A stretch of DNA of 64,000 bases. It comes from Macrostomum lignano (Eukaryota). Shown piece after piece: positions 3,136-50,763 of this stretch. Both the position numbers and the translations under genes were made by a program. Where the stretch lies: the NCBI GenBank assembly GCA_002269645.1, contig NIVC01001860.1, forward strand, positions 1 to 64,000, in the 5' to 3' direction. Position 1 is the first letter of the stretch. The number at the start of each line of letters is the position of its first letter. Under the pieces are notes generated by a model that was not told where the DNA came from, searched no databases, and saw only the letters and a program-made list of their open reading frames with translations.

Positions 3136-3329
3136 GTTAGTGAAATACTAAACCAAAATCTCTACAACAGTTTTCTGGGAGAAGGGAAAACGAGCGACAT
3201 GGAATTACATTTCTCCAAAACGGGGCCGATTCGCTTCCAGACCAGTTTGGGAAGATAGACTGGGAAGAGAAGAAAGTCAGTTTTTCCTGTTAGAAAATTA
3301 TAAAACATTTTGTTCAGCTAGAGACAAAA

Positions 3330-3669
3330 AGTAGTAGGGCGAATTATGATACTGCCGCACTAGCACTGGCGAGATAGGCGGCAATGCAAATGTATAGGGA
3401 AAAATACACTGCGGAGATATGAGCCCTATCTCTGTGCATTGGGGACGGCTAAGCACTGCAGAGATATGAGCTCTATCTCTGTGCATTGGGGACGGCTAAG
3501 CACTGCAGAGATATGAGCTCTATCTCTGTGCATTGGGGACGGCTAAGCACTGCAGAGATATGAGCTCTATCTCTGTGCATTGGGGACGGCTAAGCACTGC
3601 AGAGATATGAGCTCTATCTCTGTGCATTGGGGACGGCTAAGCACTGCAGAGATATGAGCTCTATCTCTG
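3330..3669 (+). repeat. Left terminal inverted repeat (340 bp) containing a 47-bp hairpin tandem array that continues to 3789
   Basis: Reverse complement of 19836-20175. Eight units start at 3414, 3461 ... 3743. Confidence 0.95.
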
Positions 3670-4136
3670 TGCATTGGGGACGGCTAAGCACTGCAGAGAT
3701 ATGAGCTCTATCTCTGTGCATTGGGGACGGCTAAGCACTGCAGAGATATGAGCTCTATCTCTGTGCATTGGGGACGGCTAAGCACTGCGGAGATAGAGGC
3801 GATTCATGATACTGCCGCACTAGCGCTGGCGAGATAGGCGGCAAAAAGGATATAGGAAAAATACACTGCGGAGAGGATCCTATCTCTGTGCATTGGGAAC
3901 GGCTAAACATTGCAGAGATAAGAGGGGTGGCCAATCTCTGTGCTCTGTGTTAGGGTAAGGTTATAAAGTTTTACAACTGCACAGAGGACGGCTGGTGTTG
4001 CTTACCTGGATAAGGGGACGGGGGGATACACTAATTACAGCCAGTGGCCTCTATAACGGTAAAGTAATTATTACCTGAGCATGGCTGGATGTTCATATAC
4101 GATATGATAAGGAGAGGGCATGCATGTACAAATTAC

Positions 4137-4144
4137 TATATAAG
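4137..4144 (+). promoter_or_regulatory. TATA box (TATATAAG) upstream of Polinton ORF1
   Basis: Lies about 100 nt before ATG 4246, with a CCAAT near 3931. Confidence 0.55.
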
Positions 4145-4245
4145 CAGCCACGCAAGTACAAATAAACAAATAGACAAAAACAAATTGTATAAAAGGATTT
4201 TTAAAAACCTTACTACTTCTAAAAAACAACTCTTTCTCTTTCAAA

Positions 4246-5628
4246 ATGAAAACTTTTAAAAGTTGTCATAGAGACCTCTATGAGGTCTGTATAAGCTGCG
4301 AAGTGTGCCTGCTTGGAGGCGTGTCCCCAAGACACCACGAGAATGAGAACTGTCTGGTCTCATGCTGGTTGGCATGCGACCAGTGCGGCACCGTCGAAGC
4401 TCTGCAGGAGGGAAAAATTCCAGCATATCATCGAGGACACAAGATCGTCAGCGATGACAAGAAAAAGCAAGAAAGTAACCGCTGGAAAGTAATCCGCGCC
4501 ATCAAAAAGAGCAACGAGAGAGAAAAGAAGAGCCAGCAGAAAAAGGGAGCCAGCAGGAGTCTGCTATCAGCTCACTTGAGTCAAGTAATTGACTCTACAT
4601 TGAAGAGGATGAGGCCAAGCGGGTCTTCAGCAGCTGCAGAATTTGAAGTTGAGCTGTCTGCTGGAGTCGAGGCTGCTGGAGTCGAGGCTGCTGGAGTCGA
4701 GGCCGCTGGAGTCGAGGCTGCTGGAGTCGAGGCTGCTGGAGTCGAGGCTGCTGGAGTCGAGGCCGCTGGAGTCGAGGCTGCTGGAGTCGAGGCTGCTGGA
4801 GTCGAGGCTGCTGCTGTCATAAACTTCATAGAGGAAGATGTCCTGGATCAGTTCCTCAGGGAATTCAACGCTGGTCAGCAGCAGCAGCAGCAGCAACCTG
4901 TCTCTTCGGTTCCGGTGATTGCTGGAAAACAACTTCATCTAATTGAAGACGACCACGAAATGGAAATCCTAGAAGAGGAGGGCAGCGACAATGAGTCGCA
5001 TAATGCAATTGTGCCACCTGCAGCTCCAGCCGCCCCAGCTGCTCTGGCCGCCCCAGCTGCTCTGGCCGCCCCAGCTGCTCTGGCCGCCCCAGCTGCTCCA
5101 GCCGCCCCAGCTGCTCTGGCCGCCCCAGCTGCTCCAGCCGCCCCAGCTGCTCTGGCCGCCCCAGCTGCTCTGGCCGCCCCAGCTGCTCTGTCCGCCCCAG
5201 CTGCTCTGTCCGCCCCAGCTGCTCTGGCCGCCCCAGCTGCTCTGGCCGCCCCAGCTGCTCTGGCCGCCCCAGCTGCTCCAGCCGCCCCAGCTGCTCTGGC
5301 CGCCCCAGCTGCTCTGGCCGCCCCAGCTGCTCTGGCCGCCCCAGCTGCTCTGGCCGCCCCAGCTGCTCTGGCTGCCCCAGCTGCTCCAGCCGCCCCAGCT
5401 GCTCTGGCCGCCCCAGCTGCTCCAGCCGCCCCAGCTGCTCTGGCCGCCCCAGCTGCTCTGGCTGCCCCAGCTGCTCCAGCCGCCCCAGCTGCAGCCTCTA
5501 CAATTCCAGCTTCTCAATCCGAAACTCCACCCGTGCCAGCTGGAGTTGCCTTCTTTCTGCCTCCTGTCGGCGGGGCTGGGTACGAGGTAACGATTTTCGA
5601 AAATCGTATTAGAATTGTGCCGCTGTGA
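4246..5628 (+). CDS. Polinton ORF1: Cys/His-rich N-terminus, basic region, (AGVEA)10, acidic/polyQ segment and long Pro/Ala repeat; function unknown
   Basis: 460-aa ATG-initiated ORF just inside the left TIR with non-repetitive N- and C-termini (CISCEVC...HH...CLVSCWLACDQC). Its repeats are multiples of 3 and keep frame. Confidence 0.75.
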   Translation: MKTFKSCHRDLYEVCISCEVCLLGGVSPRHHENENCLVSCWLACDQCGTVEALQEGKIPAYHRGHKIVSDDKKKQESNRWKVIRAIKKSNEREKKSQQKKGASRSLLSAHLSQVIDSTLKRMRPSGSSAAAEFEVELSAGVEAAGVEAAGVEAAGVEAAGVEAAGVEAAGVEAAGVEAAGVEAAGVEAAAVINFIEEDVLDQFLREFNAGQQQQQQQPVSSVPVIAGKQLHLIEDDHEMEILEEEGSDNESHNAIVPPAAPAAPAALAAPAALAAPAALAAPAAPAAPAALAAPAAPAAPAALAAPAALAAPAALSAPAALSAPAALAAPAALAAPAALAAPAAPAAPAALAAPAALAAPAALAAPAALAAPAALAAPAAPAAPAALAAPAAPAAPAALAAPAALAAPAAPAAPAAASTIPASQSETPPVPAGVAFFLPPVGGAGYEVTIFENRIRIVPL

Positions 5629-6511
5629 CTAAGCAATTTTTGTACTTTTTTGCTTTCTGTGTGGAGTGAGAAATCTACCCATTTATTGCAATTATTGCTA
5701 AAACTTTATTTCAACTAGCTTTTTAAAGTTGAAAGTAGGTACATTAATTAATGATTTGATCATCTCATAACTCTGTATTCGCTTCTAGGAATCTTGCTTA
5801 TAAGTTTTCAGTTTTCATTTCCAAATTAGTTTTAAAAAAAGCTCGTAGCTCGTAGTGGCAACCAATATTTTTTTGGTATCCGAGGTAAAAAAAATTATTT
5901 GAAAAGTAGGTGAAACATTATACAGTTGAATTTAACAAATTAAAATCAACATAACATACTTTCAATAAATTGGTGATGGTTTCGTATGCTTGGTGCGATT
6001 GATTAGGTATAATTTTCTTTCTACTGCTTTGATGCGGTGTTTCCTCATTCTTTAATTATTGAACTTTTCAGCTATATTTCTGCTTCTAAACTCTCGTCTG
6101 TATTTGTAATTCATTGTTCCATGCATTGTTTATTGACTATGATTGCACCATGTGAATTCGATATTTTTTTAAAAAATATATATATAATGTCAGCATTTTT
6201 CCACTCGGTGATTGGTTTGTTAATTAACTATTGGCTTCATTTTGCATTTTTTACCGATTGAGTCTGCGTAGGAGGCAAATAGAAACGAACTTTTACGAAT
6301 AGGGATCAATAGAATATGCATGCAGAGAGCTAGCTTAAGGGAGAACCAAAAAAATATAACCAGCATCTACTAGCTTGTAAGTGTGGATATTGTACCAGTA
6401 TTGCAGCAATAAAGACTTACGAAAAAAGATTTCAAATATTCACTCCCAGTTGCTTATGACACTCAGTTGCAGCCAGTAAACACTGTCAGCTTTTAACTGC
6501 TTGCCTTTTCT

Positions 6512-6908
6512 ATGGTTGAGCACTCCTGGATGGAGCAGGAGAATGACCACTCATGGATGGAGAATGACCACTCATGGATGGAGAATGACCACTCATGGAT
6601 GGAGAATGACCACTCATGGATGGAGAATGGCCACTCGTGGATGGAGGATGACCACTCGTGGATCGAGTATGACCACCCTTGGGTGGACCATGACGTCAGC
6701 AGCGAGTCAGCAGCCAGCAGCGAGTCGGCAGCCAGCAGCGAGTCGGCAGCCAGCAGCGAGTCGGCAGCCAGCAGCGAGTCAGCAGCCAGCAGCGAGTCAG
6801 CAGCCAGCAGCGAGTCAGCAGCCAGCAGCGAGTCAGCAGCCAGCAGCGAGTCAGCAGCCAGCAGCGAGTCAGCAGCCAACAGCGAGTCGGTGACTGATGC
6901 ACACCAAG
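6512..6908 (+). CDS. Repeat-rich ORF/exon (ENDHSWM heptads, AASSES hexads), probable 5' exon of pPolB
   Basis: ATG at 6512, in-frame 21-bp and 18-bp arrays, strong donor caag|gtaagt at 6908/6909. Confidence 0.55.
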
Positions 6909-7331
6909 GTAAGTGCCTTTATTTATCCTTTTCAACTTACTTAAAAATTTTCTTATCAATGCGATGTATATTATGCAGTCTAAAATTTTAGTCCAAAGAA
7001 TGGGAGAAGGGGAGATAAAAGACTTTATACCGGTAGGGTTGTACATGTATGCTTGGGTACAGACGTTTAGTTTAGTATCTTTGATATTTGAAACTATAGG
7101 CAGCAAAAAACAAAAATATTATCCTAAAACCACAAACCAGGTTCAACAGTCAGCTTCAGCAGAGTTGCCCAAGCCTATGATCAATCACTGGAAATACTGA
7201 GGCTCAGATCGAGTCACCCAGACACGCTTCCGTCAGAATTTTTTGTCCAAGCTGGAGACAAAATTATTGAGGCAGTTCAGCAAAGAATTTCAAGACATCA
7301 TTACAAAGTTCAGCTAAAGGCGAATATTCGA

Positions 7332-10300
7332 ATGGTCCGAATAAGAGATGGGGAGATGCTTGCCGAAGAGGACAGATGGATAAGCTGTAAAATGCAGGCC
7401 CTAGACCTAGGTGGTGAAGCAGGCCGTTTAAACAACTGGTTGATTGAGCAGGAGCAGGAGTTGGAGAGGATCTGTAGTATGATTAATACGAACGGCAGTG
7501 GCTGGACAATTAAACAAATTAATTTTCTAGACATCAACCTTGCCAGGTACAATCCAATTCGATTTCGCCAGGGCAGAGCCGTTAGATTCAATCTTCCTGC
7601 CAGTTTGAAGAACAAAAAGGCTGTTATCAATCCACCGAGCACAGGCAAAGACTGTTTCCTGTACGCCTGTCTCGCTGCACTGCACAGCGCCGATCCGAAA
7701 GTTCAGAAATCGCCCAACAGAATATCCTCTTACGATGAATGGTTGCGTGAGCTGGACTTTGCAGAAATCTCCATGCCAGTGAGTGTCGCTGATATCGATC
7801 GCGTCGAGTCTAACAATCCAGGAATTTGCATTTCTGCGTTCTCTTGGCAGCAGGGCAGTGTGACTCTTCTCCGTCGCCGCAAGCATGAGTCAGATGACCG
7901 AAGACACCTCATGCTTTTGCTAGTTAAAGACAGCTACGGATCGGAGCACTGGTGTGCAATTACTAATTTTGACAGGTTAATGAACAGTCGTAATGGTCCC
8001 GCCATGAGGAAGTGGTGCACGAAATGTTTAACATCATTTTATAGCAACGAGAGGCTTCAAGAGCACAGGAACGAATGCAGCATTACTGCAGAAAATCCTG
8101 TCAAAGAAACGCTTCCAGTTCCAGGACAGAATGAAATAAAGTTCCGAAACTGTCAAAACACTGTCAGTCCACCATTCGTTGCCTATGCCGACCTGGAAGC
8201 CATTTTGCGAGCGAACACAGACCCTGCTAACCTGATCTCAAAGCATGAACCATGTGCAGCAGCTTTTCTTGCAGTGCCTCGTGAAGGCATGACAGGACCT
8301 CCGCTTAGGCCAGAAGGAGACATGTACAAGGTCTTTTGCAATGCGGACCCTGATGAGTGTATCCTTGGTTTTCTCAAATCTCTTGAAAGCCTGGCTCAGG
8401 ATATATTTCACTGGAACCAGAAGCATAGCCACCAGCCGGCTGACCGATCATCCGCGACCGTCATGGATGATTTCAATTCTGCTGAGGTATGTCACTACTG
8501 CAAGAAGAACTTTAAAAGTTCTACAGATAAACATTTTGACCACGATCATTTAAATGGACAGTACAAAGGTGCAGCATGTCAAGAATGCAACCTGCGAGCA
8601 CAGCTCCGACGCCGGTTTCTGCCCCTGGTTTTTCACAACTTAGGCGGCTACGACCTTCATCTTCTACTTTCCACTGCGCTTGGGAGCATGAAAAATTGGA
8701 AACTTAGTGTTGTTCCGCAATCATCCGAGCGATACTTGTCACTAAGGGCGGAATTCCCTGTTGCAAGTTACGTAAAGAACGGAAAAGTTGTGCCAATCAT
8801 GTTTACAATTCAGTTCATCGACTCGCTCTGCTTTTTGAAGGGAAGTTTGTCCAATTTGTTTGCTAATCTTCCCGAAGCTGAATGCAAGCTGACAATGCAA
8901 ATGCTTGAGTCAAGACCACATCTTTCAAGAGAGCTACTTCGAAAAAAAGGGATTTTCCCATATGATTACCTCACAGGATTTGAGATTCTCGAGCAGTCGG
9001 TTTTGCCGCCTAAAGATGCTTTTTTTAATCGACTTTCCGATCGGGGAATTTCCGACGACGACTACAATAGAGCAAGAGCGGCATGGGCGGCATTTCAATG
9101 CAAAAGTTTGAAGGATTATATGCTCGCCTATCTTGAAATGGATGTAAGGCAGCTGGCTGACATTTTCGAGACATTCCGACAGGCCAGTCTGAAAGAGGAC
9201 GGATTGGATCCGGTACACTACTTTACTACTCCTGGTTTGTCTTACGACTCAGCTCTAAAGTCGACTGGAGTGGTTCTAGAGCAGCTGACTGATGCTGACA
9301 TGTATCATCTGTTTGAGAAGGGAATACGAGGAGGCATGTCCTTCATTAATGTGCATTGCGTCAAAGGTAATAATCCTAGCTTGCCAGGTTATGATGATCA
9401 GCAAGAGAGTGTAAGCCTCATGCCGATCGATATGAACAACTTGTATGGCTTTGCCCTGTCGCTTCCGCTTCCATGCAGGGAATTCAGGTGGGTACCGGAA
9501 CAGGAAATCCAGTTCTGGGACTCCAATCGGTTTCTGTCACTCAATCCAGAAGCCGAGATCGCCTACCTTGTTCAACTCGATCTAGAATACCCAGCTGAGA
9601 TTCACGATTCGACTCAGGAGTTACCGTTTGCACCTGAAAAATCAAAACCACAGCCAGATCAATTCTCGCCGTACATGGCCGAACTATGGAAAGAGATTGC
9701 TGAACAGCGAACTGGCAATGCTGAAGCTAAGTTTCAAGCAACGGAGAAGCTTCTACTCACCTGTACCGACAAGGATTCTTACGTAGTTCACAGCACCGTT
9801 TTAAGATTTTACCTGCAACACGGAATGCGGATCAAGTGCGTCAAAAAAATGATTTCGTTCAAGCAGGAAAATATTTTCGCGCCGTACATTGCCAGCAACA
9901 ATGAAAAAAGAGCTTTGGCAACTTCCGAGTTTGCTAAGGATTTTTACAAATTGAAAAACAATTCTCTCTTTGGAAAAACTATGGAGAACGTTCGAAAAAG
10001 ATGCGATGTTCGAATTTGCACTAACCAGACTCAAGCAGAAACTTGCGCCTCTCGACCAAACTGTGCCGCATTCTCGATTATCAATGAGTCGTTGAGCATT
10101 TTTCAGCTCAAAAAAGATAAAGTCACGCTTGACAAGGCCATTTTCGTTGGCCAGGCAGTTCTCGATCTCTCTAAGATGGCCATGTACAGCCTACTATATG
10201 ACAGGCTCCGACCGCTGTTCTGTCATTCAGACGGTTCCAGAGACATGATGCTTTGCGGAGGTGATACTGACTCATTTTTTCTAGCTTTCAAGAATCATGA

Positions 10301-10790
10301 TTTAACATCGGAGGTAATCCCGAAGCTTAGAGAGGAAAAAATACTTGACACATCCAACTATTCTCGAGACCATCCGCATTTCTCTGAAGAGTTAAAAGGA
10401 AAGCTGGGCTGCGTTAAAGATGAATCTGCTGGTGGAATTTACCAGGAGTGGATTCTTTTGCGTCCAAAACTTTATTCGTTTCTCCCTGCCGAGAATTCGA
10501 GTGCAAAGATCAAGAAAACTGCCAAAGGCGTGAAGCAGTCAGTAGTAAGACAGCAAATTTCGCATGCGAACTATGTCGACGCGTTCGAGTCCAAGCAAGA
10601 GCAGATGGTTGCCATGACAGCGATTGTTTCCAAGAAACACGAAATCTTCACGTCGGTCATGGAGAAAAGAAGCCTATCGGTGTGGGAGGATAAGCGAGTG
10701 TGGCTTAGCAGTAATCGAAGCCTGCCCTACGGACACTATGCGCTGACGCCCGCATCCCACGATCAGCTGAAGCGCATCCGACTGGTCTAG
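7332..10790 (+). CDS. polB: Protein-primed family B DNA polymerase (pPolB); reading frame open from 7128
   Basis: Exo motifs FHNLGGYD, FIDSL, KGIFPYDY, YLEMDV. Pol motifs GIRGG, DMNNLYG, KLKNNSLFGK, GGDTDS, RPKLY, AKGV. Endonuclease VII/HNH-like DHDHLNGQYKGAACQECNL. Confidence 0.97.
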   Translation: MVRIRDGEMLAEEDRWISCKMQALDLGGEAGRLNNWLIEQEQELERICSMINTNGSGWTIKQINFLDINLARYNPIRFRQGRAVRFNLPASLKNKKAVINPPSTGKDCFLYACLAALHSADPKVQKSPNRISSYDEWLRELDFAEISMPVSVADIDRVESNNPGICISAFSWQQGSVTLLRRRKHESDDRRHLMLLLVKDSYGSEHWCAITNFDRLMNSRNGPAMRKWCTKCLTSFYSNERLQEHRNECSITAENPVKETLPVPGQNEIKFRNCQNTVSPPFVAYADLEAILRANTDPANLISKHEPCAAAFLAVPREGMTGPPLRPEGDMYKVFCNADPDECILGFLKSLESLAQDIFHWNQKHSHQPADRSSATVMDDFNSAEVCHYCKKNFKSSTDKHFDHDHLNGQYKGAACQECNLRAQLRRRFLPLVFHNLGGYDLHLLLSTALGSMKNWKLSVVPQSSERYLSLRAEFPVASYVKNGKVVPIMFTIQFIDSLCFLKGSLSNLFANLPEAECKLTMQMLESRPHLSRELLRKKGIFPYDYLTGFEILEQSVLPPKDAFFNRLSDRGISDDDYNRARAAWAAFQCKSLKDYMLAYLEMDVRQLADIFETFRQASLKEDGLDPVHYFTTPGLSYDSALKSTGVVLEQLTDADMYHLFEKGIRGGMSFINVHCVKGNNPSLPGYDDQQESVSLMPIDMNNLYGFALSLPLPCREFRWVPEQEIQFWDSNRFLSLNPEAEIAYLVQLDLEYPAEIHDSTQELPFAPEKSKPQPDQFSPYMAELWKEIAEQRTGNAEAKFQATEKLLLTCTDKDSYVVHSTVLRFYLQHGMRIKCVKKMISFKQENIFAPYIASNNEKRALATSEFAKDFYKLKNNSLFGKTMENVRKRCDVRICTNQTQAETCASRPNCAAFSIINESLSIFQLKKDKVTLDKAIFVGQAVLDLSKMAMYSLLYDRLRPLFCHSDGSRDMMLCGGDTDSFFLAFKNHDLTSEVIPKLREEKILDTSNYSRDHPHFSEELKGKLGCVKDESAGGIYQEWILLRPKLYSFLPAENSSAKIKKTAKGVKQSVVRQQISHANYVDAFESKQEQMVAMTAIVSKKHEIFTSVMEKRSLSVWEDKRVWLSSNRSLPYGHYALTPASHDQLKRIRLV

Positions 10791-11372
10791 TGCGGGTGTT
10801 TAACAGACTGTTTAGTACTTTTTCTTGCTTTTAGAGTTGTTTAAATTGCCAAATTCTGTTTTAAATGTAGTGACTTGCATGTAGTAACTTTTACAAATTT
10901 GTATGCTTGGCTAATTGCGCTAGATTTAGCTGTCAATTTGTTTTTGCGGCGTGAAATATTGATATCAATTTAAGTTTTACTTTTTATAAAGCTGTGTGGC
11001 AAGTGCGCTCATACAATATTAATTCATTTTTGTTTGCTTTGTGTACTACTTGTTTAAAATGTGTTTTTGGTTTTTATCTGACACAAATTGTTCCTGTAAA
11101 TTCAATCAGCGTTTTAATCATATTTTCTCTATCACTTTTCTATTTCTCTTCTCTCGGTGCACATCGTTTGTTATAACGATGGTAGTATTGTTTACTTTCG
11201 GATTTGATATGCGTTTTGCGATACTTTTGGTGATGGGCTAAATACGTTTTTGAAGTGTTCCATAGCTGTCTGCCTGGGAAAATGAATGTAAAGAATACCA
11301 AGTTTATCCTTTTATTCACTTTTCACTAATCATTGAAATATTTGCGGCAAATTGCTTGACTTGACTTTATTT

Positions 11373-11945
11373 TTATTCAATGGAAAGAACTACATTGAGT
11401 AGACGCATGCTATCGGTATGCAACTGATTCAAGGACCGAGCTCCACTGAGAACAAAAGAGCCGCTGTGAAAAAGCAGACATTTACAAAAGTTTAAATTGA
11501 AAATTAAAGCAGAAAAGGATTCTGGTTCATATTCGGCGTTTGGGATAATTGATTTTAACATTAATAAGGAAAGTGCGGAATGAACTGGGAGCTGTCCATG
11601 AGCAGTAATAGTTTTAATTCGAACACAAATTGTTTGATGAGGCAGCAGTTGAGCCGGCACTCTCCGATGCAGCATAGCCACGAAGCGACGGGCAGCCCTT
11701 TTGGCGTCTGCGTGGGTCTTGGCACCGCAGATGCTCAGTTGCCCAGTAGGGTAGAGTAGGAGAGTCACTCTGGGAATCCGCATCCGCTTGATGAGCACCC
11801 GGGGCCAGACGGGCCGGTAGATCACATGAGCCATGCTGAGAGCCAGTTCCCGTAGAGGCAGCTGAGCGCCCCTGCCACCATCCAGTCTCAGATCTACTCC
11901 GCCAACCAGATTGGTCACTCTTAGGGCTGTAGCTGGTGGGCTCAT
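11373..11945 (-). CDS. TBP: TATA-binding protein (TBP)-like protein, about 190 aa from ATG 11945
   Basis: Two TBP core repeats recognised by eye: TNLVGGVDL...LLLYPTGQLSICGAK...AARRF and AEYEPESFSALIF...CLLFHSGSFVLSGAR. Human TBP has QNIVSTVNL, ALIFSSGKMVCTGAK, AARKY, YEPELFPGLIY and LLIFVSGKVVLTGAK. Confidence 0.88.
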   Translation of the reverse strand: MSPPATALRVTNLVGGVDLRLDGGRGAQLPLRELALSMAHVIYRPVWPRVLIKRMRIPRVTLLLYPTGQLSICGAKTHADAKRAARRFVAMLHRRVPAQLLPHQTICVRIKTITAHGQLPVHSALSLLMLKSIIPNAEYEPESFSALIFNLNFCKCLLFHSGSFVLSGARSLNQLHTDSMRLLNVVLSIE

Positions 11946-12465
11946 TTCGATCGTCAACTTCTTCACCAAATCTGCTTCTGCCAACTTTACTGCTCGTGTG
12001 CCACGGACACTGCTCGCTTCTTAAGTTGATGCAGAACTTTGGCTTAAGCCAACTGTAGTGCAGCAACGAATTTCTCACTGCACAGCCAGTATCTGAATCT
12101 TCAGTCGAGGGTGCTCCCAAATCTTCTAGGTTATAAACCTGTCTTCCAAGCAGCTCAGTCAGAAAAATCGACTTCCTTTCCCCATTTGACCAGATCGGAC
12201 CACTGGCAATGCTCAGAATGTCTTCCGCCAGTTCCATGTACGGACGGGTTCCATCATTCCACTTAAACTGGTGCAGACTCTTAGATAGCTGTCTGTAGTA
12301 AACTCGCATGTCAGGTGAGACTCTCTCCCATGGATACGGAGGTGCGTACACATGGTGAGCAATGTGGTAGCTCCCCGCTCTGATTTGAACAACTGCCAAC
12401 TCCTTCACAACAAATTTTTTGCTTGTGCTGTTGCACGGGAATCCTTGGAAGTCAATGTAGTTCAT
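11614..12465 (-). CDS. DEDD/DnaQ-like exonuclease-family Polinton protein; its C-terminal extension overlaps the TBP-like gene
   Basis: N-terminal YIDFQGF...FVVKELA, PPYPW, NLEDLG and CA..N pattern resembles small Polinton DEDD-fold proteins. Confidence 0.65.
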   Translation of the reverse strand: MNYIDFQGFPCNSTSKKFVVKELAVVQIRAGSYHIAHHVYAPPYPWERVSPDMRVYYRQLSKSLHQFKWNDGTRPYMELAEDILSIASGPIWSNGERKSIFLTELLGRQVYNLEDLGAPSTEDSDTGCAVRNSLLHYSWLKPKFCINLRSEQCPWHTSSKVGRSRFGEEVDDRNEPTSYSPKSDQSGWRSRSETGWWQGRSAASTGTGSQHGSCDLPARLAPGAHQADADSQSDSPTLPYWATEHLRCQDPRRRQKGCPSLRGYAASESAGSTAASSNNLCSN

Positions 12466-12506
12466 GATGCAGCTTTCCTTCGAAAATTTCGGAGTCAGTC
12501 CACCTT

Positions 12507-12514
12507 CTTATATA
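12507..12514 (-). promoter_or_regulatory. TATA box (TATATAAG, minus strand) upstream of the exonuclease/TBP-like unit
   Basis: cttatata on the plus strand, 42 nt before ATG 12465, inside a 100-nt intergenic gap. Confidence 0.55.
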
Positions 12515-12565
12515 CTTTTCTGGCAGGCAATTTCAGCCAGGCTGTGTTGCTCCCGTACCCCTTGA

Positions 12566-13186
12566 CTAGACTCTCCTGTTCTTTCTCCAGTTCACCCCTC
12601 TGCTGGTTGCCATTTTCTTCTTAACTGATTTACCAACAGCGGAAAGCGGAACATTAAGCTTTTTCTGCTGCAGAAAATCGATGAACTCGTTCCACCCAAC
12701 TGGTTCACGCTCACATGGCGAATCCCTCACTGTGTGCTGAATCAAGTCCAGTATGTTTGAGGAAGGGATTGACGTGCCTGCGATTTCCACCTCCCCGTTT
12801 TCACAAACTCGAATCAGCTCTGGATTGGTGGACAGGATCGTCCACAGACTGCGAGCCCTGGTTTTGAATTTCTGTGGCACCGACTTGCTGATCTTCTCTT
12901 CCCAGGTGCTTATCTGGGGTGTCTCTGTTTTCATCAACTTGGCTTCAGTATTGCGTGCTCCTTCTTTTCCAGCGTGCTTGCGCTTGGCCAGCAAACTTTG
13001 CATTGCACTTTGGTACATGGCGGTTTTCACATCTTCTGGACAATCCTCGGCATACAAGATGTCATCGCATTTCTTCTGAGCCTGCTTCAAGTCAGCTTCA
13101 GTGGTAGTCTCATTTGGCTTCAAATTCTGCATCAACATCTCATACTCTGCTTTAGGAATCAGAACCATTTCTGAAAATTTGTTCAT
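12566..13186 (-). CDS. Conserved-type Polinton hypothetical protein (206 aa)
   Basis: MVLIP start and GEV.I.G..I..SNI.DL...P.GW..F pattern resemble uncharacterised Polinton/adintovirus proteins. It sits in the late gene cluster. Confidence 0.7.
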   Translation of the reverse strand: MNKFSEMVLIPKAEYEMLMQNLKPNETTTEADLKQAQKKCDDILYAEDCPEDVKTAMYQSAMQSLLAKRKHAGKEGARNTEAKLMKTETPQISTWEEKISKSVPQKFKTRARSLWTILSTNPELIRVCENGEVEIAGTSIPSSNILDLIQHTVRDSPCEREPVGWNEFIDFLQQKKLNVPLSAVGKSVKKKMATSRGVNWRKNRRV

Positions 13187-13490
13187 TTTGCTTCTTCTTC
13201 TTTACCAGCTTAAGCAGAATCGGGAGTATTTTGATGAAGCCAGCCTTCAACAAGTCTGTCTTTCTTCTTTTGTGAGTAATTTTTCGAATTATCTCTTTTG
13301 ACTTTGCAAGAACAGCTTTTTCATCGAGCGAAAACGATAGATTGTTTTGTAAGAGATTATGGCAGGCCTCGACAAGAAAATAACGCACTTCTTTTGGACA
13401 ATTTTTTATCAACAGCCGCTTGAAGCGCACGGTATATTTAGGTGACGCAAGAACCGCAAAAAGACTTGCATATGAATCAAGCACTTCCAT
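13152..13490 (-). CDS. Small basic helical Polinton hypothetical protein (about 112 aa)
   Basis: ATG 13490. The L..L...RLLI...E...NLL.NN...IRKI pattern is typical of the small ORF that follows the ATPase in Polintons. Confidence 0.65.
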   Translation of the reverse strand: MEVLDSYASLFAVLASPKYTVRFKRLLIKNCPKEVRYFLVEACHNLLQNNLSFSLDEKAVLAKSKEIIRKITHKRRKTDLLKAGFIKILPILLKLVKKKKQNEQIFRNGSDS

Positions 13491-13531
13491 TGCGATGAAA
13501 ACAATAGCTGATAAAAACAAGCTTCACTTTC

Positions 13532-14211
13532 TTAAGCAAATACAAGATGGGGTCGCTGGTTGGGCAGAATTCTGGCCCGCACTCGCAGCTCATCGGGAGT
13601 TGATGGGTGAAAGTCTAGGAACAGGTAGGCTCCCCTGCCCTGCGCGGTCACGTGCTTGAACACTGACAGCAGAAAGCCGGGCTTCTCTGTAAAGCACTGC
13701 CTGCCCAGTGCTGCAATCTGCAGCTGGTCTCGGGGTTTTTCAAGATAGCTAAGTACATTACATTCAAGCTCATTGTTCGCGACTCTTTTCCCTTGAAAAA
13801 TATATTCTGAGTCAGCATCACCAAAAAGCACGGCAAGTGATGTGCGATTCCTGTGAAAAAATTTCGCATTGAAGCAGAGTTTGAAGTTTCCTCTATTAAG
13901 TCATCGAAAACAACCAGGTCATTGGGCCTAAGTGCTGCCTCGATGTTGGTGGGAAATCCCTGGCGCAGCTGCACACCTAGGCTGTTCAGTTCTGCATGGC
14001 CTGCCTGTGAGATCCCATAGTACCACAGAACTCTGCCAGGCTTCACATCAAACATGACGTCTCTGTACTGGATCAGGTGTTCGACAAAGGTTGTTTTTCC
14101 TGCATTGGTGGGCCCGCAGACAATCATGCAGCTTCCCTGCCTGAGGCGGATATCGTAGCAAACTTGCTTTTCTCCCATGTTTAATGCATAAATATTAGAA
14201 ATCACGGACAT
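13532..14211 (-). CDS. FtsK/A32-like DNA packaging ATPase, split by a 1-nt frameshift at about 13732-13740
   Basis: Walker A GPTNAGKT, Walker B VVFDD, LTQNIF and LAILKNP in one frame. RDQLQIAALGRQ...YLFLDFHPSTPDELRVR continues in the adjacent frame. Confidence 0.9.
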
Positions 14212-14714
14212 CTTTTTCTTAAGTTGGCTTCAAACCTCTGTAAGATTCTATCATTCAAATGATTTTTCTCATTAGCATGCAAATGCTTCAAAATCCCCTC
14301 AAATGACCGATTGAACAGAAACTTTTGATAAGCAAAATAGATGCAAAACATTCCGCATTTATTAGAGTTAGCACATTGAACTCTGTTTATATTGCTTCGG
14401 AGCCAAAAGCCAGTTGTTTTAATCTCTCGAAACAAATTATAAACCAAAGATAAAATTTCAGGTTCCCAGCCGAGGGAGTTGAACAACTCAATGCGATTTC
14501 CTTGCCCAACATAGCACACCACCCAGTGACCAAATGAGCCATTGTGCTGAAGTAGGACAAAAACAAACTTGTTTTCAAAGGAAATTGATGATCTAAATTT
14601 TCTTTTTACATTCAAGGGCAGAGAATTTTTATAGCGCAAATGTAAAGTAACTATGAGAAATTTTTGGTAAGGCAAAAATTTTCTGGCGAGATTAAGTAGT
14701 TGAATTGCATCCAT
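14202..14714 (-). CDS. Adenain-like cysteine maturation protease
   Basis: GHW (His), FNSLG (acid position is Asn), VQ...CG (oxyanion Gln and catalytic Cys). Confidence 0.85.
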   Translation of the reverse strand: MDAIQLLNLARKFLPYQKFLIVTLHLRYKNSLPLNVKRKFRSSISFENKFVFVLLQHNGSFGHWVVCYVGQGNRIELFNSLGWEPEILSLVYNLFREIKTTGFWLRSNINRVQCANSNKCGMFCIYFAYQKFLFNRSFEGILKHLHANEKNHLNDRILQRFEANLRKRCP

Positions 14715-14719
14715 GTCAA

Positions 14720-16003
14720 TTAAGAGGAATAGTCCAGCAAAAGCTCTCGGTGCTTGGTGACCTCAATCAGCGAGTCATACAGGCACATAGCAATCAGGGA
14801 CACCGCTTCATTCAGAGCCTGTTGGAAGCGAATCTCCAGCCGCAGGTTGCCCTCCTTCTGTCCGTACCACAGAGCCGCTCCCTCGGGTGTGAGATCGAAT
14901 GCAAACACCGTGGTGTTGTTGGAGAAGAGCTGGTAGGGGATCCACGGGACCGAGTTTGTGTGGCTTGCAGATTGACAGCTTTTCAGGTAGTGCAAGTATT
15001 CTCTTACGAAGGAATTGTTTTCAGGTGTGAAGGCGCCGTGGCACACGGTTTCCCCACCTTTCTTTAGAGCCAATCGGCTAAGGTTGAAGCTCTGGAACTG
15101 TAACGGGCTCGCGTGATGATGACCGTTGAATGCTCGGTGGCTCACGAAGGCCAGCATGATGAACTTCGGCAATTTTCCATGAGTGAATCCTTCAATGTTT
15201 TTTGACTGAATACCCTGGGGTAGGATGAAGTTCTGCATTTCAGTTCGCTCGATGGGATACAGTGCATTTTGGTTTGTCAGCCCCTGCTCATGGGCCAGGC
15301 TGATGTGGGGCATCACTTTGACTCGGCGAAGATGCAGAATGCTGTGAGAGATTTCCATTCGGTATGCCGCGTTGTTTGCATTCGGGGTTCTGATGGCAAA
15401 GGCCCCATCGCTGGGGACCAGTTTGATGTGCAGGTGCAGATTGCTTAGCAGAAACACTGGGCACTGGAAAACATCGCTGAAGAGCGGCCCCGCATACTCC
15501 ATCCATTGGGATTCCCTGTGGCTCTCCGTGTGCTCTTCAGCTGCCGAGTTCGGCTCCAGGAAGCCAGCAGGGTAAAGTTTTAGTTGCTGGGCATCGGATG
15601 AGCTCATTAGTGCTTTGAAGTACGCATGGTAGGGATAGAGCTGGTCTCCACCAGACACCACTCGCTGGTTAATGCTCACAATTACATCTGAGAAGGCTGT
15701 AGACAGAACAAAATTTTCTGGGTGCACGTCACTGTCTCTGCGCTCGGTGATGATGCCATCTCCATCTCGAACATCCTCCCTCAGCAAACCCCCATCCAGT
15801 CTCACAAGGCGGCAGCGAATATAAAGAAAAGAATTAAGCAGATCTGTATATTCATCGGCAGATTGGTGGCAGTCAAATTCAATGGGAGAGTTTGCAACAA
15901 TGGAATTAACTGGGTGAATATCAACATAAGTAGCTTTTTCAATGCAGGTTTGTAGAACGGGCGTCTTAAATAAATCAAGTCTGGGATTGAATCCGTAAGC
16001 CAT
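14720..16003 (-). CDS. Major capsid protein (double jelly-roll, Polinton PY/hexon-like)
   Basis: 427 aa, beta-rich. LDLF..P..Q, SPIEF, FSDV.V.IN, YPYHAY, P.FIMLAFV, FAFDLTP and G.LRLEI.F patterns. Located next to the protease. Confidence 0.88.
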   Translation of the reverse strand: MAYGFNPRLDLFKTPVLQTCIEKATYVDIHPVNSIVANSPIEFDCHQSADEYTDLLNSFLYIRCRLVRLDGGLLREDVRDGDGIITERRDSDVHPENFVLSTAFSDVIVSINQRVVSGGDQLYPYHAYFKALMSSSDAQQLKLYPAGFLEPNSAAEEHTESHRESQWMEYAGPLFSDVFQCPVFLLSNLHLHIKLVPSDGAFAIRTPNANNAAYRMEISHSILHLRRVKVMPHISLAHEQGLTNQNALYPIERTEMQNFILPQGIQSKNIEGFTHGKLPKFIMLAFVSHRAFNGHHHASPLQFQSFNLSRLALKKGGETVCHGAFTPENNSFVREYLHYLKSCQSASHTNSVPWIPYQLFSNNTTVFAFDLTPEGAALWYGQKEGNLRLEIRFQQALNEAVSLIAMCLYDSLIEVTKHRELLLDYSS

Positions 16004-16005
16004 GT

Positions 16006-16383
16006 CTATGACAGAGAGTCGAGCACGCGTTTCACAGTTTTCTTGCTGACTTTTTGCTTTCGCTTTCCTCCGCCTGCTCTATTCTTCTTTGCTTTCGTCT
16101 TCCTATTCTTAAGCTTTTTCCCACTAGCCTTGCTCGACCTCTTACTGCGATTTCCACCAGTTGCCTTTCGGGTGCCCTTCTTTTTCTTCAATCGTTTCGG
16201 ACTTGCTTCAGTATTTCTTTTGCGCCTGACGTTGCTAAGCGTCGAGGCTGATGATGATGATATAGCCGCTGGCGGAGGCTGGTATGTCATGATCCCTGGG
16301 AAGCTCCCACAGCCATAGAGTGCAGGCTTTTCGTGTCCTGTCCTCACCCCCGAATATTGCTGGATTAGCTGCTGGTAGTTCAT
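16006..16383 (-). CDS. Lys/Arg-rich putative genome-condensing core protein (125 aa)
   Basis: ATG 16383 overlaps the minor capsid stop (ATGA). The C-terminal half is very basic. Contains LYGCG. Confidence 0.7.
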   Translation of the reverse strand: MNYQQLIQQYSGVRTGHEKPALYGCGSFPGIMTYQPPPAAISSSSASTLSNVRRKRNTEASPKRLKKKKGTRKATGGNRSKRSSKASGKKLKNRKTKAKKNRAGGGKRKQKVSKKTVKRVLDSLS

Positions 16384-17198
16384 TGAATGCGTTTCTCCTG
16401 AATTTGAACTGTAAGCAGAACAGGGCTGTGAGTCTGTGCAATCAGTGGGCAACCATAGATGTCCCGCAGCTGAACTCGAATGCTGTGAAGAAGACTGATT
16501 CGTTGAATCGGGAAGAATATTGTTTTCTTAAATATTTTTGTTTGATAGTTGCCCCATTCAATGCCAGCTTTCATTCCAACTGTTCTCAACAAGGAGCTCC
16601 AGTTGCAATTAGTTGACTCAACGATACTGCAGTGCACATTGATTAAGCTGGTGCGCGGGCAGCCAATGCAATGCTCGGATACGCGGCTCCCTGGCTGGAT
16701 TTTCACAGCCTGGTTTCCAAATCCCAGCCAATGCAGAATTTTACTAGATGGAAGAAACAGCTCTGCTCTCGCAGTGTTGTTGTGCACCACAGTTCGTGAG
16801 TTGCGGATTTCGAACTTCATACCAAATTCCCTGTTGCCACTACGCCCCATCAGGCCGGACTCATCAGCCTCCATCTCAGACTCCCTGTCACTCATTGCAT
16901 CAAAGAACAGCGAATCAGAGTTGGCCAGCAGCTCATTCAGGCGCTCCACCAGCTCCTCCACTCTAGCAAAGCGTCCGGGTTGAAGAACCAGGGCCTCATG
17001 CTCTCTTCCATCTGAGACAGTGAAGCAGTAAGGCTCGTCAACATTGAACCATGCAGCAGGCAGATGGATTTCAGCCAGACCTGCCTCATAGTCCACATTT
17101 CGATCCAAGTAAATAGGTGAAGGCAGGTAAAAATTAAAGTCACTAGGAGTACCTTCAGCATGCTCACTGTTAATCAAAATAGTTCGCATTATAATCAT
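16380..17198 (-). CDS. Minor capsid protein (penton, single jelly-roll)
   Basis: N-terminal PSDFNFYLPSPIYL...YEAGLAEIHLP..WFNV pattern is typical of Polinton pentons. Confidence 0.8.
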   Translation of the reverse strand: MIIMRTILINSEHAEGTPSDFNFYLPSPIYLDRNVDYEAGLAEIHLPAAWFNVDEPYCFTVSDGREHEALVLQPGRFARVEELVERLNELLANSDSLFFDAMSDRESEMEADESGLMGRSGNREFGMKFEIRNSRTVVHNNTARAELFLPSSKILHWLGFGNQAVKIQPGSRVSEHCIGCPRTSLINVHCSIVESTNCNWSSLLRTVGMKAGIEWGNYQTKIFKKTIFFPIQRISLLHSIRVQLRDIYGCPLIAQTHSPVLLTVQIQEKRIQ

Positions 17199-17226
17199 AA
17201 ACTACATGATGAGGGCTGTGCCAAAG

Positions 17227-18297
17227 CTAAACCTTTCTTAAGTCTTTTTCATCCACCCAGCCAGTCGAGTCGTAGCCCGCCCATTTCACCAGATAGCGAA
17301 TTTTTCCCTTCCGCTTCTCCGTTTTCAGGATCTTCTCAATCACATACAGCCGCTGTGAGTCCGGGACAGCCTGCAGCTCGTGCTCATGGAAGAGTCCTCG
17401 AATCTCTTGCCCCCGCATGTCTTTAATCTTGTACATGTAGGGATAATGTTTTGGGGCTCTGCTCACCACGGTGTACACTTCCTCACTCCAGCTCGCTTTG
17501 TATCCCTTTTTGAATATCCGTGGAGCATTGGAAATTCTCACTGACTGGTTTTCAGCGAACTTAGGCTTCTTTAATTTTTCTAGAGTCTCGACTGCTTTTC
17601 CATCGTACAGGTTCATCCACACTTCAGATTCATTCTCTTTGCAGACACTAGTGGGTGCCATTTTGATGCTTCTGTGGTAGGTATTGTTGTAGGATTTTAC
17701 CAGCTTAGGCAGCACATCAAGCCAGTGCAGTGTGCTCTTGTAGGTGAAGTAGCGCCACATTCTACTTTTCAGAGTTCGATTCCATCGCTCAATGACAGCT
17801 GCCTTCTGCTCGCTGTTAGTTGGGAAAGCCAGAATCCCTCTGTCAATGCAGTATTGACGGAAAGTGGAGTTGATAAATTCCTTCCCCTGATCTGTGCGAA
17901 CTGTGCGTGGCTGGCGCTTTGAACTTCTCAGTATGCTCTCGAATGCTGACTTCACTTCTGCAGCAGATTTATTTTTCAGTGCCTTGGCCCAAGCACATTT
18001 TGAGAGCACGTCAATGCATGTGAGAATATATTTGTAGCCTTTATTATGCTTTGCGAATGGAATCATTTCCACTAAGTCAAGTTCCCACTGATCATCGATT
18101 GCGCGCACTATGATTGGGGCCCTTGGATATCGCCTCCTAGCTGGCTTGTGCAGAGTGTGCACTGGCTGCTCGCTGAGCCACTGCTCAATGCTCTTTGCAG
18201 ATATTCGATCACCTCTTTGCCTCACTTCATGCAGCAACTTTGAGGCACAAGAAAAACTAGCCGGTTGCTCAGGTTTCAAATAAATTTTCTCCATCAT
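17227..18297 (-). CDS. Retroviral-like DDE integrase with C-terminal chromodomain
   Basis: WELDLVEM (D), RTDQGKEF (D), VIERWNRTLK (E). C-terminal IEKIL...YLVKWAGY...WV chromodomain. Confidence 0.95.
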   Translation of the reverse strand: MMEKIYLKPEQPASFSCASKLLHEVRQRGDRISAKSIEQWLSEQPVHTLHKPARRRYPRAPIIVRAIDDQWELDLVEMIPFAKHNKGYKYILTCIDVLSKCAWAKALKNKSAAEVKSAFESILRSSKRQPRTVRTDQGKEFINSTFRQYCIDRGILAFPTNSEQKAAVIERWNRTLKSRMWRYFTYKSTLHWLDVLPKLVKSYNNTYHRSIKMAPTSVCKENESEVWMNLYDGKAVETLEKLKKPKFAENQSVRISNAPRIFKKGYKASWSEEVYTVVSRAPKHYPYMYKIKDMRGQEIRGLFHEHELQAVPDSQRLYVIEKILKTEKRKGKIRYLVKWAGYDSTGWVDEKDLRKV

Positions 18298-18617
18298 GGG
18301 TTTATCAAGATACGTGCCTATCCACCTGCTCTAGCTGTACAGTATTTTTTCTTAAGTAGAAATTTATATTCCAATTAAATGATAGAGAAACGAGTGGCAA
18401 ATTAATTTATTACTGTCAGATTGAAACCTCTAACATCGTAACAGTCGGTGTATTTTCCGAAAGCAAACAATCCATAAAAACGAACACTAAAACACTCGCA
18501 CACCAGCATTTCAGAAATAGCAGAGATAAAAAACAGCATAGTGCCGTCAGGCTGGATAATCATGTGCAAGCTAAAAGTAATTTAGTTAGTCCAATGCATT
18601 CAAAGCATTCTAGCTGT

Positions 18618-19394
18618 TCAGTTATCAAAGCGAACATTGGGCTGCAGCCTCATCGCGTCCTGCCGACGAAGTTGAAATGGCAGCTTTCGCTTCCTGCTGC
18701 TGCTGCTCACCGTCGAAGCCGCTGCATGCGCCCTGAACTGATACCACACCGGATCTTCCTCAAGGTTGGTGTCCCGCTGCGGAAGCAGTCCAGCATCAGA
18801 ATCAACCGAAGGTATCGGTGTGGATGTGATTGGCTCAGTCACAATGCGCGGCCTTGTGGGCGAGCTAACGTCCTCGTCATCAGCATGATCTCCGCCCTCA
18901 TCAGTCTCCATTATGGGCTTCGTGTCCTGGTCAGCCTCCAACTTGAGCTTCTTGTCCTCTTCCTCCTCTTCCTCATCAGACTCCAGCTCGTACTGCATTG
19001 TGTTCCTCAAGGGAGCCACCAGCTGACCGTCGATCCAGGAGGCGATTTTCCAGAGCTTCTGCCACAGCGGCGGAGTCAGTGGTACGGCGTTTCGTCTCAA
19101 AAACTCCTCGCAGCAATCTTCCGGCAGCCGTTTGAGCCAAATGATGCCGCCTTTGACTTCCACAAACTTATCGAAGCCGAGTTTCACGACCTTGGGCTCG
19201 TTGTTGCGTGCAGAAATCACAAGTGAGCGTTTCACCTCCTTCAATTTCTTCCATTGGTGAACATTCAGGTTGAATCCTGGGACGCCTGGCTTCAGACTTG
19301 CCGTGCTGCCGTGTCGGTAAAATTTGCGAATAGCGATAAATTTTTGTCCTTCAAACTCCTGGACTTGTGCCTTATAGCCTTCACAGATGTCCAT
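18618..19394 (-). CDS. PC4/Sub1-like ssDNA-binding protein with a probable second degenerate PC4 repeat and an acidic tail
   Basis: AQVQEFEGQKFIAIRKFY...LKPGVPGFNLNVHQWKKL resembles PC4 VSVRDFKGKVLIDIREYW...KPGRKGISLNPEQWSQL. Confidence 0.8.
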   Translation of the reverse strand: MDICEGYKAQVQEFEGQKFIAIRKFYRHGSTASLKPGVPGFNLNVHQWKKLKEVKRSLVISARNNEPKVVKLGFDKFVEVKGGIIWLKRLPEDCCEEFLRRNAVPLTPPLWQKLWKIASWIDGQLVAPLRNTMQYELESDEEEEEEDKKLKLEADQDTKPIMETDEGGDHADDEDVSSPTRPRIVTEPITSTPIPSVDSDAGLLPQRDTNLEEDPVWYQFRAHAAASTVSSSSRKRKLPFQLRRQDAMRLQPNVRFDN

Positions 19395-19498
19395 TTTCCT
19401 TTCGCAATTGAAAACTCACAAAAGTTAAAAGCTGAGGAAAATTTCGGATGAAATTTTGGATTTGAAAAATTGAGAATTCTTTCTTGTCAATTTCGGGG

Positions 19499-19558
19499 CT
19501 TATATACCCTCGACCGAACCACCCCAAACCACCCATCCCACTCCGGGCTCTGTGATTG
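19499..19558 (-). promoter_or_regulatory. Pol II promoter of the PC4-like gene: CCAAT box and TATATAAG
   Basis: gattggc at about 19553-19560 and cttatata at 19499-19506, 105 nt before ATG 19394. Confidence 0.6.
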
Positions 19559-19601
19559 GCTCTTTCGCAAACATTATTTCCAATTACATAGATTAACATC
19601 T

Positions 19602-19820
19602 TATCTCTGCAGTGTTAACCACCCCCAATGCAAAGAGATAGGCCGCCTCTCCTCCTATCTCTGCAGTGTTAACCACCCCCAATGCAAAGAGATAGGCCGC
19701 CTCTCCTCCTATCTCTGCAGTGTTAACCACCCCCAATGCAAAGAGATAGGCCGCCTCTCCTCCTATCTCTGCAGTGTTAACCATCTCCAGTGTAAAGAAA
19801 TAGGCCGCCTCTTCTCCTAT
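19602..19820. repeat. 54-bp subterminal tandem repeat (about 4 copies) related to the TIR 47-bp unit
   Basis: tatctctgcagtgttaaccacccccaatgcaaagagataggccgcctctcctcc at 19602, 19656 and 19710. Confidence 0.9.
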
Positions 19821-19835
19821 CACTCCTGTGTTAAG

Positions 19836-20175
19836 CAGAGATAGAGCTCATATCTCTGCAGTGCTTAGCCGTCCCCAATGCACAGAGATAGAGCTCATAT
19901 CTCTGCAGTGCTTAGCCGTCCCCAATGCACAGAGATAGAGCTCATATCTCTGCAGTGCTTAGCCGTCCCCAATGCACAGAGATAGAGCTCATATCTCTGC
20001 AGTGCTTAGCCGTCCCCAATGCACAGAGATAGAGCTCATATCTCTGCAGTGCTTAGCCGTCCCCAATGCACAGAGATAGGGCTCATATCTCCGCAGTGTA
20101 TTTTTCCCTATACATTTGCATTGCCGCCTATCTCGCCAGTGCTAGTGCGGCAGTATCATAATTCGCCCTACTACT
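19836..20175 (-). repeat. Right terminal inverted repeat (340 bp)
   Basis: Five full and one partial 47-bp unit plus the terminal unique part. Ends attcgccctactact. Confidence 0.95.
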
Positions 20176-20416
20176 ACAAAAGTTTCTCCCCTATTTGCCA
20201 GATGTGGTAAATAAGTTTCTATTCTTTCAGTTCAGTAGCAATGAAGAATTTGTACATAGGAACGGGGGGACAGTGGGGCCATGGCCGGCCAGTAATGGTA
20301 TCTGGCCCCTCCACATTTTAAATGCAAAATGTTGACTTTTTGCTTATTTTTTACTCTTATTTCTGGTTTTTGCTGCTTTTCATGAATGCATTTTGCTGCA
20401 GGACGACAAATCATAG

Positions 20417-50266: not shown

Positions 50267-50763
50267 AAATTTCATGTTGAATGGTCAAGCCAAAGTGAGC
50301 GAACTCGAATATCGATCTGCCTTATAAAATCACATGTATTTTAAATGGGAGCACATCGAAAATCGGTGCCATTTCGAGCCAGAGTAACGGATCGAGCTGA
50401 AACTGTATATTTATCGGTTTCTTAGTTGCATTTTTTAGTGTGTAAAATTTCATGTTGAATGGTCAAGCCAAAGTGAGCGAACTCGAATATCGACATCTGC
50501 CTTATAAAATCACATGTATTTTAAATGGGAGCACATCGAAAATCGGTGCCATTTCGAGCCAGAGTGACGGATCGAGCTGAAACTGTATATTTATCGGTTT
50601 CTTACTTGCACTTTTTAGTGTGTAAAATTTCATGTTGAATGGTCAAGCCAAAGTGAGCGAACTCGAATATCGATCTGCCTTATAAAATCACATGTATTTT
50701 AAATGGGAGCACATCGAAAATCGGTGCCATTTCGAGCCAGAGTAACGGATCGAGCTGAAACTT
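50267..50763. repeat. About 180-bp triple tandem repeat forming an expanded right subterminal region
   Basis: aaatttcatgttgaatggtcaagcc...gatcgagctgaaact occurs three times. Confidence 0.92.

Follow-up and report, generated by a model that had tools for sequence, protein, structure and literature searches.

Canonical TATA-binding protein (TBP) binds TATAWAWR, nucleates the pre-initiation complex and forms a DNA-dependent pair with TFIIB. KSHV ORF24 and the late TBP mimics of beta- and gammaherpesviruses carry a TBP fold that is thought to read a TATTWAA late box with host Pol II, as described in the available part of PMC12529657. The TBP-like proteins of NCLDVs come from viruses that mostly encode their own TFIIB, and their C.L3.2 glutamate is only about 40% conserved, according to the accessible sections of Ravarani et al. 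2020 (PMC7221094). For MELD viruses with adintovirus-like PolB, the accessible text of Starrett et al. 2021 (PMC8502044) gives a TBP label in the legend to Fig. 5, with the carrier virus unnamed.

Here we describe a TBP gene in a 16.8-kb Polinton that is bounded by TIRs, is multicopy in Macrostomum lignano and lies in the window (the 64-kb stretch of DNA analysed). Like KSHV ORF24, it combines a viral TBP fold with a non-canonical TATA-like box and has polar substitutions at V122 and V161 (PMC12529657, available part). Unlike ORF24/UL87, it consists of a TBP core alone, 190 aa long, with the TFIIB glutamates retained and no evident partner genes; the Pol II-binding N-terminal domain, the C-terminal domain and the viral partner complex are missing. 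By analogy, we model it as a protein that would work like KSHV ORF24 while standing outside the ORF24 family. It resembles the NCLDV proteins in being a two-lobed viral TBP of a dsDNA virus, and differs in retaining both glutamates, in having Tyr for the L5.1-type Phe of the first lobe and in lying in an element without a TFIIB match (PMC7221094, accessible sections). TIRs, pPolB, integrase, adenain and the ATPase module are shared with adintoviruses, Polintons and MELD viruses, as these appear in the accessible parts of PMC8502044 and preprint 10.1101/697771.

The preliminary description had known of no report of TBP in Polintons, where it is not among the standard genes. That view holds for a Polinton TBP family or late box, neither of which was found in full-text literature, although subscription journals, Repbase, figures and bioRxiv supplements may hold one; it yields to the legend of Starrett et al. 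2021 as regards the TBP label itself. In the searchable text of that paper, TBP occurs in figure legends only, with no family, signature or promoter, and the one supplement searched has no TBP or TATA entries (PMC8502044). Word searches for TBP, TATA and promoter found none in PMC10748475, PMC11131425 and 10.64898/2026.06.19.733378. The Polinton TBP is a real and conserved gene, and a candidate new version of the viral-TBP late-switch idea.

Gene content of the Macrostomum element

Long TIRs, AG...CT ends and a 6-bp TSD are hallmarks of Polinton/Maverick elements, and the window element has such TIR ends (the pair 100% identical over 340 nt) and a TSD, together with pPolB, a retrovirus-like integrase, an adenain protease and an A32-like ATPase. 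It belongs to family 1, in which L053 represents a 75%-identity subfamily. Its features are as follows.

3330..3669, +, left TIR, 340 nt, starting AGTAGT; 6-bp TSD ACAAAA at 3324-3329
4246-5628, +, ORF1, N-terminus rich in Cys and His, then tandem repeats of 15 nt and 18 nt
7332..10790, +, protein-primed DNA polymerase B (pPolB), 1152 aa, PF03175 E 2e-12; convergent with TBP
11373..11945, −, TBP ORF, 190 aa, two TBP repeats and no extra domains
11614..12465, −, ORF283, N-terminal domain homologous to other Polintons; acidic DxxG motif
12566..13186, −, ORF that we take to be PZ-like, shorter than its L053 orthologue
13152..13490, −, ORF112, basic; orthologue in L053
13648..14211, −, packaging ATPase-like ORF, frame broken near 13.7 kb in the window copy
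14202..14714, −, adenain-like cysteine protease (PRO), PF00770 E 7e-5
14720..16003, −, putative major capsid protein (MCP), from size, synteny and conservation; no Pfam match
16006..16383, −, small very basic protein, putative core protein
16380..17198, −, putative minor capsid protein (mCP), from size, synteny and conservation; no Pfam match
17227..18297, −, retrovirus-like integrase (INT) with chromodomain, PF00665 E 3e-13, PF00385
18618..19394, −, PC4-domain protein (transcription cofactor/ssDNA-binding), PF02229 E 5.5e-8
19836..20175, −, right TIR, 340 nt, ending ACTACT; TSD ACAAAA at 20176-20181

The ATPase was assigned through its homologue in the metagenome contig L057 (Pox_A32, E 2e-6), and for the double and single jelly-roll capsid proteins there was no Pfam match. 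ORF283, which is presumably nuclease-like, had zero matches among PDB sequences and falls in unnamed arthropod clusters in the Atlas, with a Maelstrom lead at 0.88. Its tail (11614-11945, −) overlaps the first 106-110 TBP codons in a different frame; this frame is open in 18/18 copies checked (128 codons in family 2), the chance of such an open frame given the TBP protein is 0.1-5% per sequence, and it may encode an overprinted Ser/Gly-rich tail. A PC4-domain gene stands alongside TBP in families 1 and 2 and in L057 (window 18618-19394; L051 3564-3998; L057 1321-1803), and its product may be a coactivator or an ssDNA-binding protein. The TIR region 3360-3876 is composed of 47-nt tandem units, and a further pair of inverted repeats, 199 nt long and 2 kb apart at 48442-50888, is probably a small DNA transposon.

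The 190-aa ORF matched Pfam TBP (PF00352) in two stretches (E 7.9e-25) and 35 distinct TBP sequences in a PDB sequence search (best E 2e-18), bearing out the earlier description of a roughly 190-aa ORF with both TBP repeats inside a TIR-bounded element. Structure prediction and Foldseek, which had been suggested alongside PF00352 as ways of recognizing the fold, agreed: an AlphaFold2 model on a 97-row alignment reached pLDDT 96.3 and pTM 0.87, and a Foldseek search with it returned TBPs at TMq about 0.8-0.85, figures that express compatibility with the fold, not independent proof, because the input alignment consists mostly of TBPs. A single-sequence model was poor (pLDDT 37), and the alignment-based model was used instead. 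A Pfam scan gave no TFIIB match in any of the 14 ORFs scanned.

The DNA-contact face and the CTTAAGAA box

Residues are numbered as in yeast TBP, and the 16 DNA-contact positions compared are those of Table 1 in the available part of PMC12529657, with L189 left out. Seven are kept (N69, V71, L114, F190, L205, F207 and V213) and nine altered (F99P, A101V, F116Y, V122S, T124C, N159T, V161T, P191S and T215S). With A101V aside, these substitutions and the absence of an N-terminal extension set the protein apart from cellular TBP/TRF2, with which it shares the fold (TM about 0.84), N69, V71, F190, F207 and the TFIIB stirrup. Two of the four intercalating Phe of canonical TBP (F99, F116, F190, F207) are kept, F116 having become Tyr and F99 Pro; the first Asn/Val pair (N69/V71) is intact and the second (N159/V161) reads T/T.

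Most of this surface had been read correctly in the preliminary description: repeat 2 keeps both intercalating Phe (F190 = F144, F207 = F159), the second DNA-contacting Asn is replaced (N159 by T112) and both acidic residues of the TFIIB-binding stirrup are retained (C.L3.2/C.L3.4, E186/E188 = E140/E142, a pair defined in the accessible part of PMC7221094). Of the W and Y that it placed at the intercalating positions of repeat 1, the Y stands (F116 is Y65), whereas the F99 column holds Pro48 instead of W; Trp47 aligned with the Arg preceding F99, in an ungapped alignment to human TBP and in further alignments. One intercalating aromatic is therefore gone, unless the loop register is shifted, and DNA binding may be weaker from the loss of F99. 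The altered face is near-invariant across family 1 and its 72-76% relatives. P191 reportedly limits box position 1 to T, and the 3' half of the box is said to be read by the N159/V161 strand together with the first repeat. By a mapping that we infer, P191S/N, N159T, V161T/S and V122S/N would fit a shift toward non-canonical boxes.

A box of this kind, CTTAAGAA, was first spotted by eye in upstream regions; an unbiased k-mer scan then returned it as the top 8-mer of the window gene block (6 seen versus 0.15 expected) and of L053 (5 versus 0.14). It is a TATA variant with G at position 6. The 64-kb window contains eight copies, six in the element and an overlapping pair in host DNA. All six element copies are on the sense strand, 44-110 nt 5' of a gene start, with the zone 30-120 nt upstream of starts making up 12% of the gene block; this count takes the second in-frame ATG as the ATPase start, which matches the L053 start and was picked after the box was known (5/6 otherwise). 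The boxes of the element, canonical ones included, are as follows.

4137..4144, +, canonical TATATAAG, 109 nt before ORF1
12018..12025, −, CTTAAGAA, 80 nt before the TBP ATG, within ORF283, codons TTA-AGA kept
12505..12514, −, hybrid TATATAAGAA, 49 nt before ORF283, a canonical TATA overlapping a TAAGAA core
13529..13536, −, CTTAAGAA, 46 nt before ORF112
14216..14223, −, CTTAAGAA, protease 3' end, 45 nt before the second in-frame ATG of the ATPase and 12 nt before the first
16106..16113, −, CTTAAGAA, within the basic-protein gene, 110 nt before the putative MCP
17235..17242, −, CTTAAGAA, integrase 3' end, 44 nt before the putative mCP
18349..18356, −, CTTAAGAA, 59 nt before integrase
19499..19506, −, canonical TATATAAG, 112 nt before PC4

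Canonical TATATAAG thus stands in front of PC4, ORF1 and ORF283 (the last through the hybrid), and CTTAAGAA is absent within 120 nt of the starts of PRO, PZ, the basic protein and pPolB. Three boxes are in coding sequence that is conserved with L053, with TTA-AGA codons in both. Of 140 conserved Leu codons, only 4 read TTA in the window and L053 alike, and of 10 conserved Leu-Arg pairs the 3 that are TTA-AGA in both are exactly the boxes, a pattern that points to constraint acting on DNA.

The box lies ahead of TBP in 14/14 family-1 copies checked. Distances from box to matching gene start are at least 33 nt, and short-frame ATGs occur 9-24 nt past the box in several cases, a spacing expected of a TATA-like element. 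Weighing the other way, the window ATPase and mCP leaders contain short upstream ATGs at +34/+35, and in-frame ATGs of long ORFs stand at +12 to +19 in three cases, the window ATPase and the mCP and ATPase of L144. In TATA register the boxes read C-T/A-T-A-A-G-A-R and differ from TATAAAAG at positions 1, 2 and 6. Two other readings of the motif were set aside: on inspection TTAAG makes a poor trans-splice or 3' splice acceptor, with A at -3 and no pyrimidine tract, and a poly(A) signal does not suit two intergenic boxes and one in mid-ORF283.

Copies, families and ancestry

A genome search with the TBP gave at least 152 matches (150 of 231 candidates scored); among the matches listed, at least 25 were identical full-length copies, window included, and the others fell in tiers near 88, 80, 76 and 38%. 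Host TBP is found on three contigs and host TRF2 likewise, and element copy numbers are therefore possibly inflated up to about threefold. All TIR-end matches scored (40/40) were 100% identical. A contig from one run (X4) joins both flanks of 3326-20179, an empty insertion site that represents either an insertion polymorphism or an unoccupied homeologue. The identical TIR ends and the empty site are consistent with recent activity. Contigs from four runs span TIRs and intergenic DNA alike and are uninformative on starts and strands.

Selection was assessed in 15 family-1 copies, one per subfamily (105 non-independent pairs, estimable where dS exceeded 0.1). Median dN/dS was 0.165 for the N-half of TBP (70/105 pairs estimable) and 0.163 for the C-half (79/105 pairs, with dS near saturation), and the gene is clearly under purifying selection and maintained. 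The preliminary description would have been undone by disrupted siblings with dN/dS near 1; instead, many sibling copies are full length and the ratio is about 0.16. Across four subfamilies, nucleotide identity drops from 91-100% to 42-54% exactly at the ORF283 stop (window about 11373-11610), and between L053 and the window pPolB is far more diverged (50% identity) than INT/MCP (84-85%). This suggests module shuffling, with crossovers within the TBP gene.

The search for sibling elements that had been recommended found TBP beyond family 1. Family 2 (L051, L052, L144) encodes a TBP with 37-38% identity to that of the window, neighboured by pPolB, INT, MCP, PRO, ATPase and PC4. Family 3, chosen as a TBP-less comparison, has a far-diverged TBP-like ORF (HMM E 6e-9 and 4e-11; Pfam E 1e-4 for one of two, just under the cut-off; hhalign probability 94.7) with 91 genome matches. 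This frame (L145 8366-8914; L146 8427-8960) lacks an initial ATG and shares sequence with the end of an upstream ORF that is driven by a TATA box, with TTGCAG directly before the first TBP strand; it may be expressed via splicing or frameshifting. A Fic-domain ORF (L146 6112-6888, PF02661 E 7e-14) adjoins the family-3 Polinton genes. Outside M. lignano, the metagenome contig L057 carries consecutive genes for TBP (23% identical), PC4, INT, the putative mCP, the putative MCP and an A32 ATPase, while L058 has TBP, a PC4-like ORF and INT; these were the 2 loci with Polinton genes by tblastn with window proteins among 80 kept from 477. IMG/VR scans with P0001, with MCP and with an MCP alignment gave zero matches, and a scan with the short-TBP alignment gave one 25%-identity match without Polinton neighbours. 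The partial contigs L137-L139 had no TBP match at E 0.01.

N159T combined with V161T/S, a T-x-T/S signature, occurs in 24/25 Polinton or Polinton-like TBP rows, including all seven with shown context, and in 0/31 other rows, and suggests a single origin of Polinton TBPs. In quick trees with SH-aLRT support, whose deeper branching order is prone to long-branch error, families 1 and 2 form one branch (SH-aLRT 93-94), the L057 and L058 TBPs group with 13 more short proteins lacking known context (97), and the TRF2 pair forms its own branch (99), separate from the Polinton TBPs, none of which nest with host TBP or TRF2. The window TBP shares 29% identity with host TBP and 27% with host TRF2. The earlier idea of a captured, diverged TBP with an altered DNA face thus survives in its divergence, maintenance and altered contact surface; recent capture from the host is not supported, given the low host TBP identity, the grouping with neither TBP nor TRF2 and a signature common to distant Polintons.

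Boxes also differ among elements. The top words of L057 are ATAAGAGG (6 versus 0.08 expected) and CATAAGAG (6 versus 0.13), the latter lying before INT, mCP, MCP and ATPase and absent before the L057 TBP and PC4. WTAAGAR is biased to the sense strand (sense/antisense 9/1 in the window, 8/0 in L053, 8/0 in L144, 5/0 in L051 and 6/0 in L057), with counts of 0/1 and 4/0 in the family-3 contigs L141 and L142, and of 4/1 (+ block) and 0/0 in the TBP-less insect-type partial contig L138. The family-2 TBP gene lies behind canonical TATAAAAG in 3/3 copies. Box-to-MCP spacing is alike in the window (110 nt), L144 (107 nt) and L057 (111 nt). Family 3 uses CTATAAATA/CTACAAATA, largely canonical TATA that host TBP could in principle read, with five TATAAAT copies per block, ahead of the genes for the mCP-like protein, the basic protein and MCP, and with TACAAATA ahead of the ATPase. 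In L138 (6235 and 8093), L141 and L142, canonical TATAAAT is found ahead of ATPase, capsid-module and other genes at a distance of 34-74 nt, and per-gene internal promoters may be general among Polintons. Two other Macrostomum families and one metagenomic Polinton thus appear each to pair their own TBP, far diverged and TBP-like in family 3, with their own box.

A candidate late-gene switch and its alternatives

We favour, as the probable reading, the view that the viral TBP is a minimal late-gene specificity factor that would use host Pol II and TFIIB. Host TBP would read the canonical TATA boxes of the early genes (PC4, ORF1, ORF283); the viral TBP, as soon as it is produced, would bind non-canonical CTTAAGAA through its re-tuned saddle, recruit host TFIIB and Pol II via the conserved E-x-E stirrup and switch on the integrase, capsid, ATPase and core-protein genes, and in family 1 also its own gene, in positive feedback. 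TBP-box binding, a transcription start about 30 nt downstream of the box and the early/late order are steps that we infer. A host adapter would be needed because no TFIIB match was found in the 14 ORFs scanned; given this and the intact TFIIB pair, the simplest model is a switch from early to late genes that runs on host Pol II. The model leaves the first expression of TBP in family 1, itself behind the box, unexplained. Weighing against it are the near-canonical TATA of family 3 despite a TBP-like gene, which weakens a one-to-one need for the viral protein, the four WTAAGAR sites each in L142 (family 3) and on the + block of TBP-less L138, the TAAG core with its likeness to baculovirus, the loss of F99 and the missing boxes at PRO, PZ, the basic protein and pPolB.

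The family-3 boxes favour an account in which the box is read by another factor, either host TBP/TRF2 where the context permits it or a late polymerase that starts at TAAG and belongs to a large DNA virus acting as helper, and the viral TBP serves elsewhere, for instance in bending replication or TIR DNA. The WTAAG core resembles the baculovirus late motif and fits its late initiator, virophages and their helpers have late promoters in common, and TATAAG is reportedly tolerated by wild-type TBP. We nonetheless consider this account unlikely: the box differs among families in one host genome, its ATG spacing is TATA-like and the same central DNA-contact positions are changed in the TBPs of all four element types with shown context. 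The preliminary description had offered either transcription initiation or a decoy role. The shared upstream box gives independent support to the former and is left unexplained by the latter, in which TFIIB, TFIIA, NC2 or Mot1 would be bound without productive promoter binding and host transcription shut off. The TFIIB glutamates are the best-kept surface, family 3 included, and changes affect two of the four Phe and one Asn, as a decoy might have them; yet the altered DNA face has been held near-invariant rather than decaying, and a decoy seems distinctly improbable.

Less probable still is a repressor that sits on the boxes and keeps the integrated element latent. The family-1 TBP gene behind a box would also fit negative autoregulation, but the retained TFIIB-recruiting glutamates suit activation better, and in family 2 and L057 the TBP gene has no TAAGA box. 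A neutral passenger lately acquired from the host has in its favour only the general habit of Polintons to carry host genes, and is refuted, to a degree that leaves it almost no credence, by the dN/dS, the divergence from host TBP and the presence of TBP in three divergent families and outside the M. lignano genome.

The late-factor reading extends to a wider proposition that we regard as plausible and hold tentatively: a broad animal Polinton lineage with an ancient, single-origin TBP whose DNA face would co-evolve with the family-specific boxes CTTAAGAA, CTATAAGAA, CATAAGAG and CTATAAATA. A Polinton TBP whose matching box precedes the morphogenesis genes offers a concrete, testable late-transcription mechanism, and the proposed switch would be a far simpler route to the late-promoter strategy of herpesviruses. 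A conserved TBP-box pairing argues for a regulated virion phase in animal Polintons, and diverged pairs would be natural altered-specificity TBPs for the TATA recognition code. If true, lineage-wide TBP-box pairing would act on host Pol II as a sigma-factor-like switch made of one protein, and its orthogonal TBP-promoter pairs would form a natural set.
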